Counted from the stretch's first letter, positions 1,240 to 8,451 are shown. The stretch: DNA of 11,071 nt from a virus (IMGVR_UViG_2778261676_000005); one strand, 5' to 3'. Numbers and translations are program-made. The notes: a model not told the origin generated them from the letters alone.

Positions 1240-1431
1240 TTATCGCGAGTTTTTAGTACAGATTTTTTTTGATTTACTAATAGTTCCATCATTGCAAACG
1301 AACTTTCCATCGGAGGTACAGTGAGAGACACCTCCCTTTTTCCCAGAACAAGGGTAATTTTTAGCATAGGTAGTTAGTGGGTTTAATAACAAAGAGCATG
1401 ATAAAACCACAAAAAATACCTTACCAAGCAT
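1240..1431 (-). CDS. Small secreted cysteine- and lysine-rich protein (63 aa), function unknown
   Basis: Hydrophobic N-terminus with a likely signal-peptidase site after ..TYA; mature part ~40 aa with 4 Cys. Strong SD (GGGAGGAAA) directly after the cI stop, so probably co-translated with cI. Region is visibly AT-rich. Confidence 0.55.
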
Positions 1432-2016: not shown

Positions 2017-2040
2017 GGTCACTCCAAGTGAACTTTTATC

Positions 2041-2069
2041 TTGACGATTTCACTGTGCGATCGTATGTT
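2041..2069 (+). promoter_or_regulatory. Candidate sigma70 early lytic promoter (pR-like): TTGACG-N17-TATGTT
   Basis: -35 TTGACG at 2041-2046, 17-nt spacer, -10 TATGTT at 2064-2069, pointing at apl/cII. Flanked by inverted hexamers GTGAAC (2030-2035) and GTTCAC (2086-2091) and by two GATC sites. Confidence 0.4.
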
Positions 2070-2141
2070 TATGGTGTTCACAAAATACAAACGATCCGTA
2101 TTCGTCCTGATTAATCATCATTAAACGAGGAATGTTGCATC

Positions 2142-2363
2142 ATGAGACCTAACATTTCAATCACTCTTACCACGCCTCATGTGACTATTGAACGCTATAG
2201 CGAGCTGACAGGGCTGTCCATCGATACCATCAATGACATGTTGGCTGACGGACGCCTTATCCGTCACCGTCTGCGCAAAGATAAAAAACGTGAAAAAGTG
2301 ATGATCAACATAGCAGCCATGACCGTTGATGCGCTTTCAGAATGCAATCTAAACCTTAATTAG
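2142..2363 (+). CDS. apl: Apl/Cox-like small DNA-binding protein (excision control / repressor of lysogenic promoter), assigned by position
   Basis: First gene of the rightward operon opposite cI, 73 aa, basic C-terminus, GAGGAA upstream. Assignment rests on position in the 186-type switch and size, not on recognised sequence motifs. Confidence 0.5.
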
Positions 2364-2395: not shown

Positions 2396-2905
2396 ATGTT
2401 TGATTACCAAGTTTCCAAACATCCACATTTTGATGAAGCCTGTCGTGCATTCGCATTGCGCCACAACCTAGTGCAACTGGCAGAACGTGCAGGCATGAAT
2501 GTGCAGATTCTGCGGAACAAGCTGAACCCAGCTCAACCTCATTTATTAACCGCACCAGAAATCTGGTTGCTTACCGATCTGACTGAAGATTCAACGCTGG
2601 TAGATGGCTTTCTGGCACAGATTCACTGCCTGCCATGTGTACCGATTAATGAGGTGGCAAAAGAGAAACTGCCGCATTACGTCATGAGTGCAACTGCAGA
2701 GATAGGGCGTGTCGCGGCAGGTGCGGTTTCTGGCGATGTAAAAACCAGTGCAGGCCGTCGTGATGCGATCAGCAGCATTAACTCTGTTACACGACTGATG
2801 GCGCTGGCTGCTGTTTCATTGCAGGCCCGTTTACAGGCTAATCCTGCGATGGCGAGTGCAGTTGATACCGTGACTGGCCTCGGTGCTTCATTCGGTTTGC
2901 TGTGA
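2396..2905 (+). CDS. cII: CII-like lysogeny establishment regulator (phage 186 CII family)
   Basis: Resembles 186 CII from the second Met ([20 protein letters not shown]..), and is 169 aa from that Met, the same length as 186 CII. AGAGG lies 8 nt upstream of ATG 2396. Confidence 0.8.
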
Positions 2906-3719: not shown

Positions 3720-3946
3720 TGGCTGATGCAATGGATCTCGTACAGCAGCGCGTTGAAGAAGAACGCCAACGCCATATCCGTGCTGCCCGTGCCAAAACGC
3801 CGGGCGTGTCCCGCGTGCTTTGCGTTGAGTGTGAAGCGCCAATTCCGCCAGCACGCCGCCGTGCCATTCCGGGTGTGCAGCTTTGCATTACCTGTCAGGA
3901 AATCGCAGAGCTGAAAGGCAAACATTACAACGGAGGTGCTGTATGA
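3719..3946 (+). CDS. TraR/DksA-family C4 zinc-finger protein (P2 orf82-like)
   Basis: CVECEAPIPPARRRAIPGVQLCITCQ is a CxxC...CxxC finger with the basic spacer typical of phage TraR-like proteins. Stop overlaps the dam start (ATGA). Confidence 0.75.
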   Translation: MADAMDLVQQRVEEERQRHIRAARAKTPGVSRVLCVECEAPIPPARRRAIPGVQLCITCQEIAELKGKHYNGGAV

Positions 3947-4800
3947 GCACCATCCTGAAATGGGCAGGAAATAAAACCGCCATAATGTCCGAACTGAAAA
4001 AGCATCTTCCTGCTGGCCCGCGACTGGTTGAACCTTTCGCGGGTTCCTGTGCAGTGATGATGGAGACGGATTATCCCAGCTATCTTGTTGCGGATATTAA
4101 TCCTGATTTAATCAACCTCTATAAAAAGGTTGCTGCTGATTGTGAGGCGTTTATATCTCGTGCCAGAGCTTTATTTGAGGAAGCAAACAGGGAGGTGGCT
4201 TATTACAACATAAGGCAGGAGTTTAATTACTCCACTGAAATTACTGATTTCATGAAAGCGGTATATTTCCTGTATCTCAATCGTCACGGTTACCGTGGTT
4301 TATGTCGCTATAACAAGAGCGGGAATTTCAACATTCCCTACGGTAATTATAAAAATCCGTATTTCCCTGAAAAAGAAATTCGCGCATTTGCAGAAAAAGC
4401 CCAGCGAGCAACGTTTATCTGCGCCAGCTTTGATGAAACGCTGGCGATGTTGAAGGCGGGGGATGTGGTGTATTGCGATCCGCCGTATGACGGTACGTTT
4501 TCCGGCTATCACACTGATGGTTTCACTGAAGATGACCAGTATCACCTGGCATCCGTTCTTGAACATCGGTCATCAGAAGGACATCCGGTCATTGTTTCTA
4601 ACAGTGACACATCCCTGATCCGTTCGTTGTATCGCAATTTCACCCACCACTACATCAAAGCAAAACGCAGCATCGGTGTGGCAGCTGGCGAGGGTAAATC
4701 AGCAACAGAAATCATTGCTGTTTCCGGGCCGCGCTGCTGGGTGGGATTTGATTATTCGCGTGGCGTGGACAGTTCTGCCGTGTACGGAGTACGTGCATGA
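3943..4800 (+). CDS. dam: DNA adenine methyltransferase, Dam-like (N6-adenine class)
   Basis: N-terminus [11 protein letters not shown] and motif FAGSCAV, plus the catalytic DPPY motif ([11 protein letters not shown]). ATG 3943 follows GGAGG; the longer track ORF from 3883 is an upstream extension. Confidence 0.85.
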
Positions 4801-6981: not shown

Positions 6982-7549
6982 TAACAACCTGCGCCTGCAG
7001 GTCATTCTTAATGCGGTTGACAAACTCACCCGCCCATTCCGTGCTGCACAGGCCAGTTCGAAAGAGCTGGCTGGCGCAATCAGAAACTCCCGTGACGCAT
7101 TAAAGCAACTCAATCAGGCGGGTAACAGCCTGGAAAAATTTCGCAAGCTGCAGGCTGATAACAAGAAGTTAGGCGACAGGCTGAACTATGCCAGACAGAA
7201 GGCTAATTTGCTTAGCTCTGAGCTGGAGGCGATGGAGCAACCATCACAAAGGCATTTTGTGGCTTTAGGTCGGCAAACGCTGGCAGTCCAACGCCTGGAA
7301 GAACAACAAAAATATTTGCAGAAGCAAACGGCGCTTGTGCGTGCTGAACTGTACCGGGCGGGAATTTCTGCGAAAGATGATGCGGGAGCAACTGCCCGTT
7401 TAGCCCGTGAAACATCACGTTATAACCAGGAACTTTCGAAACAGGAGGCGCGGCTGAAGCGACTGGGGGAAGCTCAGCGCAGGATGAATGCAGCGCGTGC
7501 CAGTTACCCGCGAACCCGCGAAGAAAGAAAGCACTACGGTGAAGCGTAA
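6974..7549 (+). pseudogene. T: Tail tape measure protein gpT, N-terminal fragment (~170 aa of an expected ~800)
   Basis: N-terminus MSDNNLRLQVILNAVDKLTRPF with coiled-coil sequence is typical of P2-family tape measure proteins. The ORF ends after 191 aa and overlaps the gpD-fragment frame. Confidence 0.7.
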
Positions 7550-7907: not shown

Positions 7908-7997
7908 TTCTTCGCAATGGAGAACTTTTAAGTTTGCAAAATGGAATAATAAGGTATCATTATTGTGAATTTAGCAAAAATGGGGAGAACTCGAAAA

Positions 7998-8216: not shown

Positions 8217-8238
8217 CGCTGCCGCCATTTTGTCGCCA
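8217..8238. repeat. Right copy of the 22-bp direct repeat; candidate attR core
   Basis: cgctgccgccattttgtcgcca starts on the nucleotide after the ogr stop and matches 19-40 with one mismatch. Confidence 0.6.
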
Positions 8239-8296
8239 TCGTTAAAAAGCAGTGCTTCTAACATCATGATTTTAAAAGGCATAAATTTCAGACAAC

Positions 8297-8339
8297 AAAA
8301 AACCCATCAACCTTGAACCGAAATGGCGGGGTTGATGGG
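8297..8339 (-). terminator. Candidate intrinsic terminator for ybjL (read on the minus strand)
   Basis: Perfect 10-bp arms CCCATCAACC (8303-8312) and GGTTGATGGG (8330-8339), with an inner CCG/CGG pair, followed on the minus strand by a U-run (plus-strand A-run 8297-8302). About 110 nt downstream of the ybjL stop, and the loop is large, so confidence is modest. Confidence 0.35.
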
Positions 8340-8451
8340 CTCCACAAAATGGGGACATCAAAGAAAAGCAGTGGCACTAATTAAGACTGATGCCCTGCGG
8401 AAAAGTTCTGCGGTTGTGCAAAAAAATTTCATTTTCAGGGCAACTTCAGTT

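Follow-up and report, generated by a model that had tools for sequence, protein, structure and literature searches.

The window, a stretch of 11,071 nucleotides of viral DNA (IMGVR_UViG_2778261676_000005), carries a defective 186-type P2-like prophage of E. coli, of which the interval at positions 2017 to 2141 is the cI-apl intergenic region. Based on the ORFs and their Pfam matches, int (1-1053), an ORF of 63 aa and cI (1447-2016) are located on the minus strand. The rightward genes are, in this order, a gene of 73 aa, cII, fil, genes for a DUF5347, a DUF2732 and a TraR-like protein, dam and a truncated gene A. To the 3' side are fragments of tail genes, an ogr-like gene and then host ybjL.

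The cI gene encodes an immunity repressor of 189 aa (Pfam Phage_CI_repr, 2.8e-33; Phage_CI_C, 2e-28), 32% identical to 186 CI over 175 aa and similar to the PDB entries 2FJR (E 3e-31) and 2FKD (E 3e-14). Its start is the same in the RefSeq annotation of E. coli ATCC 8739. The gene of 73 aa (2142-2363, plus strand) is the first of the lytic operon and was assigned to PHROG 575 (E 6e-31), a family of Cox-like excisionases and repressors. No Pfam match was found for this apl-like product, and its similarity with 186 Apl is local only, with an alignment of 20 aa. The cII product (2396-2905, plus strand; Pfam Phage_CP76, 3e-42) is 69% identical to 186 CII. The element had been described as Dam-encoding and the gene is indeed present: dam (3943-4800, plus strand), in the pR operon, specifies a D12-class N6-adenine methyltransferase (Pfam MethyltransfD12, E 4e-78), and its homologue in ATCC 8739 is annotated as DNA adenine methylase.

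At the right end of the prophage, the RybB sRNA gene (Rfam RF00110, 105 bits) was found at 8294-8372 on the minus strand; it is the sole Rfam match in the window, with none in the switch. The 3' end of rybB overlaps with the att core TAAATTTYAGAYAACAAAAAACCCAT (8281-8306), of which ATCC 8739 has a second copy at attL (L001, 7003-7028). This indicates that the phage integrates in this end of the gene, between rcdA and ybjL. Paired repeats CTGCCGCCAYTTTGTCGCCA are present at 20-43, inside the end of int, and at 8219-8241, just after ogr, and match the Int arm-site consensus YAYCGCCAYTY of the 186 record. The ORF of 63 aa between int and cI (1240-1431, minus strand) has a signal-peptide-like N-terminus, is a member of PHROG 6000 (E 5e-34; function unknown) and has a promoter-like site at 1427-1398. 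It may be a moron, i.e. an accessory cargo gene.

The segment from 1900 to 2400 is 100% identical to that of a full-length prophage beside rcdA in ATCC 8739, and was found with at least 80% identity in 539 of 5426 complete E. coli genomes (about 10%). The ATCC 8739 prophage is PhiECO2 (Nilsson et al. 2011, PMC3448106), which together with PhiECO1 and PhiSEN1 constitutes a probable CI immunity class with a cI-apl spacer of 125 nt (PMC3448106). This spacer corresponds exactly to 2017-2141 here. On the sequence evidence, the prophage switch is a heteroimmune relative of the phage 186 switch, in a class catalogued before at the level of CI identity.

The copy in the window has internal deletions at about 6257 and about 7488-7549. 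Gene A is joined to the gpE/tail region and the N-terminus of the tape measure protein runs into the C-terminus of gpD, leaving about 8 kb of a prophage of roughly 35 kb at full length. None of the complete E. coli genomes of the collection spanned the first deletion junction (about 6257). Since this copy is internally deleted, its switch may no longer control a lytic programme, and the truncation of gene A, its fusion to tail genes and the amount of DNA lost would all suit a decaying relic whose motifs have no present function. We consider this unlikely: the reading frames of cI, apl and cII are intact, the switch is 100% identical to the one in the full-length prophage, 56 haplotypes of this sequence type show strong constraint, and the retained cI would still confer immunity.

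The rightward lytic promoter pR is formed by a −35 box TTGACG (2041-2046) and a −10 box TATGTT (2064-2069), separated by 17 nt, with a predicted start at about 2076. The preliminary description, which called the region a 186-type lysis-lysogeny switch with a lytic promoter at 2041-2069 feeding apl-cII, was correct in this main call, and TTGACG-N17-TATGTT is exact and points at apl-cII. In the consensus scan the promoter matched 9 of 12 positions and was the sole promoter-like site on the plus strand between 1100 and 3200. By consensus alone this is not above chance, with two promoter-like sites against 4.9±2.1 in shuffled sequences. Switch regions of relatives were compared, taken from species-representative genomes, IMG/VR contigs and GenBank phages. 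In the first 19 relatives examined, TTGAC[GA]-N17-TAnnnT was located just 5' of the apl homologue without exception, and the same holds for most of a set of 161 distinct switch sequences. Across 21 mutually diverged types the information content was 1.75 bits per position for the −35 box and 1.29 for the −10 box, compared to 0.27-0.38 for flanking DNA. The promoter call is thus well supported by the conservation of its position and hexamers. As the promoter, hexamer and GATC matches are individually ordinary by statistics, the case for function is one of position and comparison throughout.

The heptamers ATGTTTA (2065-2071) and CAAACGA (2088-2094), over the −10 box of pR and the downstream operator described below, resemble the CII half-sites ATGTTTG/CAAACAT. 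Their spacing is 23 bp centre to centre and the resemblance is probably coincidental.

Two hexamers near pR, GTGAAC and GTTCAC, had been put forward as operator half-sites bracketing the promoter, at 2030-2035 and 2086-2091. They are found at 2028-2033 and 2076-2081 instead. As half-sites for CI they are plausible, but they do not make up one pair around pR, for each has its own partner at a distance of 5 bp: GGTCAC (2017-2022) for GTGAAC and ACAAAC (2087-2092) for GTTCAC. Each hexamer is the promoter-proximal half of a separate 17-bp dyad, and the two dyads are centred 59 bp apart. The upstream dyad, putative operator O1 (GGTCAC-TCCAA-GTGAAC, 2017-2033), overlaps the Shine-Dalgarno sequence of cI (CTCC, 2022-2025). 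It is the sole match to GTTCAC-N5-GTGAAC with two or fewer mismatches in the 11-kb window and the sole exact TCAC-N5-GTGA. The downstream dyad, putative operator O3 (GTTCAC-AAAAT-ACAAAC, 2076-2092), covers positions +1 to +17 of pR and has three mismatches to the dyad pattern, its distal half matching at 3/6 positions only. The palindrome ACGATttCACtGTGcgATCGT in the pR spacer (2044-2064), halfway from O1 (centre 2025) to O3 (centre 2084), is a putative, weak middle site, O2, with a half-site TTTCAC (2048-2053) that matches GTTCAC at 5/6 positions. It is the sole match to ACGAT-N11-ATCGT without mismatches in the window, and its register as a CI site is ambiguous.

O1 and O3 share the 17-bp format ATTCAC-N5-GTGAAT of the CI sites annotated in 186 at pB, FL and FR (ATTCAC-AAAAA-GTGAAT, ATTCAC-GAATT-GAGAAT, CTTCAC-TTAAT-GTGAAT and ATTCAC-TTTAT-GTGAAT). 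The operators are spaced 31 and 28 bp apart, unlike the two-turn spacing of the three pR operators of 186. A spacing of three turns has a precedent in the two sites at 186 pB, which bind CI tightly at a distance of 32 bp from each other (PMC3675496). No distal sites like FL or FR were found in the window at two or fewer mismatches, nor was a CI dyad at the ogr promoter at the same threshold, where a lone GTGAAT is present near 7966.

Counted from the start of the −35 box, the dyads occupy −24 to −8 and +35 to +51, and type-specific dyads are found at these offsets in four heteroimmune types. In L008 they are GATCAC-ACCAT-GTATAC upstream and GTCTAC-AAAAC-GTGAAC downstream; in 813R9 they are TGATCTCACTTGGGTAC and TGTACCCAATTGGGTAC, respectively, and the L264 type has GTACCCAAGTATGAAC at the O3 offset. 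The right half-site at the O1 position is exactly 7 nt 5' of the −35 box in the L264 and 813R9 types too. In the L264 and L262 types (IMG/VR), GTACCCAnnTGTGAAC occurs as three direct copies at intervals of 29-30 bp, upstream of pR, in its spacer and downstream, so that the L264 type has a third operator copy at the position of O2. In the Fels-2 group, a downstream dyad AGGTTTG-N5-CAAACCT is located at about the same place as O3, and its version in L012, GGGTTTG..CAAACCC, is changed on both arms. In L006 and L007, which have the same CI N-terminal domain as the window, the half-sites of O1 and the left halves of O2 and O3 are kept, and the centre of O2 is replaced.

The hexamers are exact reverse complements flanking the core promoter and could belong to a single long-range inverted repeat as its two halves, one operator pair serving one repressor unit. 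Their distance of 42 bp edge to edge, the partner that each has in the 17-bp format of 186, the complete dyads (not one split dyad) at each position in relatives and the lack of enrichment of the hexamer (8 copies in the window, 5.2 expected) make this highly improbable, even more so than a relic. CI binding at O1, O2 and O3 is the preferred reading of these sequences. RNA structure was rejected as the cause of the palindromes, with z = −1.36 for the cI leader (2125-2005, minus strand) and z = −0.33 for the apl leader.

The helix-turn-helix region of CI, assigned from the Pfam domain and the alignment and not from a structure, is almost invariant across types with differing dyads, and variation is found in the N-terminal arm and the first helix. 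Either CI specificity would reside elsewhere, for example in this variable arm, or the dyads would include some that CI does not bind.

Two further features of the relatives were observed around the operators. The GTACCCAnnTGTGAAC unit merges the half-site of this window (GTGAAC) with that of 813R9 (GTACCC), and L264 and L262, which carry it, are without a GATC in pR and without dam. Between the downstream operator and apl, L005, L009, L015 and L002 have about 28 additional nt, including a small hairpin (GGCTCGCCACAAGCC), which are absent from the window and from L006-L008.

A leftward promoter facing pR, left unplaced in the preliminary description, could be located by positional homology with the annotated pL of 186. 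In 186, pL (TTGCGA-N17-CATGAT, minus strand) has its −10 box 10-5 nt upstream of the apl ATG and its −35 box 13-18 nt downstream of the A of this codon. The same offsets, to the base, are occupied in the window by TTGAAA (2160-2155) and CAACAT (2137-2132), with a 17-nt spacer and a predicted start at about 2125. TTGAAA and CA(A/G)(C/T)AT are found at the same place in 813R9, Fels-2, SEN8 and Cartapus, and the stretch from the apl Shine-Dalgarno sequence to the ATG is conserved across types, though free of coding constraint. The match to the consensus is 8/12, below the threshold of the scan, which therefore missed it; matches of 8/12, and of 9/12 as for pR, are common by chance. Such a match would fit a pL that is weak, as it is in 186. 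By prediction, pR and pL converge, with starts about 50 bp apart.

Between O3 and pL, the direct repeats ATTAATC and ATTAAAC (2110-2126, plus strand), 10 bp apart, are candidate sites for the Cox-like Apl. A TAATCA core is present at the equivalent place in types with the same Apl family, and 186 has direct repeats at 10-11 bp spacing in this region (PMC7498355). The assignment of these repeats to Apl is weak. In 186-type switches, tandem Apl sites are present at att as well. A TTAATGA element occurs once in attL of ATCC 8739; the window does not contain the Apl arm of attL.

The half-sites ATGTTTG (2396-2402) and CAAACAT (2416-2422), where cII starts, are predicted to serve CII at a leftward establishment promoter, pE. 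The CII site at the cII start of 186 (L003, 2936-2962) consists of identical 7-mers with the same centre-to-centre spacing of 20 bp. A perfect 9-nt inverted repeat TTTCAGAAT / ATTCTGAAA (2335-2343 / 2368-2376, 24 nt between the arms) lies across the apl stop, where 186 has the FR site and the −10 box of pE. It was rejected as an equivalent of FR, as it is not conserved in 813R9.

The preliminary description had also listed two GATC sites, one in the −10 region of pR and one near the downstream hexamer, and had set both aside because of their unexceptional density. The density is indeed unremarkable, with 43 sites in the window compared to 39.7 in shuffled sequences, and the positions, 2059-2062 and 2093-2096, are near those claimed. 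The first is located in the spacer, one base upstream of the −10 box, and not in the box. For the second site, which abuts O3, conservation is limited to close relatives: it is kept in L006 and L007, which are of the same immunity, but not across types, and it is lost in one close variant. The first, at −17 to −14 of pR, is nearly as conserved as the −10 hexamer across heteroimmune relatives.

This first GATC is at the same spacer position in 19/19 relatives, in about 15 of the 21 diverged pR types and in 81 of 82 contigs of the same type. Its information content is 1.12 bits per position versus 0.45 for the other 13 spacer positions. In ten spacer types it is invariant at −17 to −14, with the other 12 spacer bases unrelated between them. 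The bases at −18 and −19 vary within types, so that the conserved unit is the tetranucleotide GATC. The rare losses are AATC, GACC and GATG, as well as GATT in SopEPhi. Among the types without this GATC, L344-L359 and L262/L264 have no detectable dam, and L342, L281 and ESSI-2 have one; 186, YpM, YenM_56.17, EtG and YenM_324 lack both the GATC and dam. Members with dam were found in all ten GATC-bearing spacer types, versus 6 of the 12 types without GATC. Counted by locus, where lineages are not independent, 149 had both, 34 had GATC without dam, 21 had neither and 16 had dam without GATC. Because of shared ancestry and uncertain promoter calls in the GATC-less types, these counts are no test of association, and the association that they suggest across loci is confounded by ancestry.

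The sigma-70 extended −10 motif is TGn. GATC is not of this form, which makes an intrinsic preference of the promoter a less likely reason for its conservation. A Dam-dependent effect on RNA polymerase or on the binding of CI is one possible alternative, and membership in a CI half-site another. As a working Dam target, methylated by host Dam and by the phage Dam expressed from pR itself, the GATC at 2059-2062 could alter pR strength or CI occupancy of the middle site, and would couple the switch to replication or infection history. Its fixed position amid unrelated spacer bases, its retention beside a hypervariable pentamer (see below), its dissimilarity to TGn, the presence of dam+ members in every GATC-bearing type and the lack of both in two types of the clade and in 186, YpM, YenM_56.17, EtG and YenM_324 are consistent with such a role. 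Against it, the loci with only one of the two (ESSI-2 among them) make the association with dam imperfect as well as confounded, and the hosts have their own Dam, so that a phage dam is not needed. SopEPhi is dam+ and reportedly Dam-responsive, yet has GATT at the site. In one register, moreover, GCGATC (GTGATC in L006, L007 and L008) resembles the half-site GTGAAC, and the upstream operator of L008 uses GATCAC as a half-site, so that the conservation could reflect CI binding. A role as Dam target is kept as a tentative possibility. No paper was found that addresses a GATC in this promoter.

Other explanations of the site were tried and rejected. A link to the Dam effect reported for SopEPhi excision was weakened by the GATT of this phage. 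An imperfect palindrome of 38 bp with a GATC at both ends (2059-2096) scores 78% here and 13/18 in L006, with no compensatory changes, and is best taken for a side effect of O3 and of the GATCs at its flanks. Matches to a LexA box or an IHF site over the GATC were poor, as judged by eye.

Two bases from this GATC, at the centre of the putative middle operator, a hypervariable pentanucleotide was found (2053-2057, CTGTG here; −23 to −19 of pR). Among 56 haplotypes with CI at least 95% identical, all five positions vary, three of them with three or four alleles, at a mean entropy of 0.51 bits. The intergenic entropy outside 2053-2057 is 0.015-0.031 bits, compared to 0.08-0.10 at third codon positions, so that the remainder of the region appears to be under purifying selection. 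Twelve alleles of the pentamer were counted in 82 contigs with identical 42 flanking bases, and other 5-nt windows in 1791-2363, away from the patch, had at most four each. The changes recur, since up to four alleles are found on identical 350-bp backgrounds. A comparable patch was not seen in other switch types. The pentamer may be a mutational hotspot or may be under diversifying selection.

A more elaborate proposal joins both features. The GATC would be selected as a Dam site, its methylation would be read by pR or by CI at the middle operator, phage Dam would feed back on the switch, and diversifying selection or local hypermutation of the pentamer would tune repression or immunity. The states read would be full methylation, hemimethylation after replication and no methylation under bound CI. 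We regard this combination as doubtful, more so than the Dam target on its own. If true, it would add an epigenetic layer not described for 186-type switches.

Taken together, the interval is most probably (about 80%) the immunity and switch region of a 186-type (CI/Apl/CII) P2-like prophage in which CI represses pR through three sites. From pR, transcription would run rightward through apl, cII and fil and on to dam. A weak convergent pL, starting about 50 bp downstream of the pR start, would transcribe leftward into cI and int. CI, a homologue of the wheel-forming 186 repressor, most likely represses pR via O1, O2 and O3, at intervals of about three helical turns. O1 is a strong dyad 5' of the −35 box, O2 a degenerate site in the spacer, and O3 would cover the transcription start. 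As in 186, pL would be freed from transcriptional interference once pR is repressed. The probable targets of Apl, which represses both promoters in 186-type switches, are the AT-rich repeats between O3 and pL, and CII would activate pE from ATGTTTG/CAAACAT (2396-2422). The sequences themselves show the gene homologies, the motif positions and the conservation; operator, promoter and Dam assignments, protein-DNA contacts and transcription starts are inferred from them, and the regulatory logic is carried over from 186.

The analysis mainly confirms the annotation, and provides a testable map of promoters and operators for an immunity class present in about 10% of complete E. coli genomes. What goes beyond annotation is a Dam site at a fixed position in pR across many immunity types, with a hypervariable patch of 5 bp beside it. 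If either is functional, it would show epigenetic tuning or natural diversification of a well-understood bistable switch, and the pentamer variants would be a natural series of promoter alleles.

Compared to known systems, the switch is not of the P2 type (C/Cox), in which a C repressor of about 99 aa acts on direct repeats and cII is lacking, since a 186-family CI of 189 aa and cII are found here. Dam-sensitive promoters are known from IS10 (pIN), Tn5, dnaA (P2) and phage P1 (cre), where GATC overlaps the −10 or −35 hexamer. The prophage promoter resembles these in that its core contains a GATC and that it belongs to a mobile element which may be replicated and become hemimethylated. It differs in the position of the GATC, −17 to −14, for which conservation is shown.

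With the class of PhiECO1, PhiECO2 and PhiSEN1 (PMC3448106), the window shares the 125-nt spacer, and its switch is 100% identical to that of PhiECO2, of which it holds a deleted derivative. In that paper the class was defined by the identity of CI and spacer only, with no promoters, operators or GATC. The CI N-terminal domains of Fels-2, SopEPhi, SEN8 and Cartapus (Felsduovirus, Elveevirus) belong to the same clade as that of the prophage, and these phages share its pL template, the pR template TTGAC[GA]-N12-GATC-N-TAnnnT and a dam in the early operon. Their Apl is of a different family (MSTDISIRV...) and the dyads around pR differ, for example AGGTTTG-N5-CAAACCT, so that they are presumably heteroimmune.

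Several differences from the switch of 186 (NC_001317; PMC3675496, PMC7498355) are evident. The identity of CI is no more than 32%, and Apl can barely be aligned. At pR, the putative operators flank and overlap the promoter at a spacing of about 28-31 bp, where 186 has three sites 21 bp apart, and FL and FR, about 300 bp away in 186, have no counterpart here at two or fewer mismatches. The Apl region, with 2 candidate repeats versus 7, is far shorter, and the conserved GATC in pR and the Dam of the operon are both absent from 186. Between the predicted starts of pR and pL there are about 50 bp, compared to 62 bp in 186; the convergent promoters of 186-type switches are 40-62 bp apart. Gene order and protein families are the same in both, and the predicted pR and pL would face each other as in 186. 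The leftward lysogenic operon starts with a 186-family CI (HTH and CI_C) with int downstream, and the C-terminal domain of this CI is homologous to the 14-mer wheel domain (PDB 2FKD). The putative CI dyads share the core TCAC-N5-GTGA with the pB, FL and FR sites of 186, and the offsets of the predicted pL from the apl ATG and the CII half-sites at the cII start are identical.
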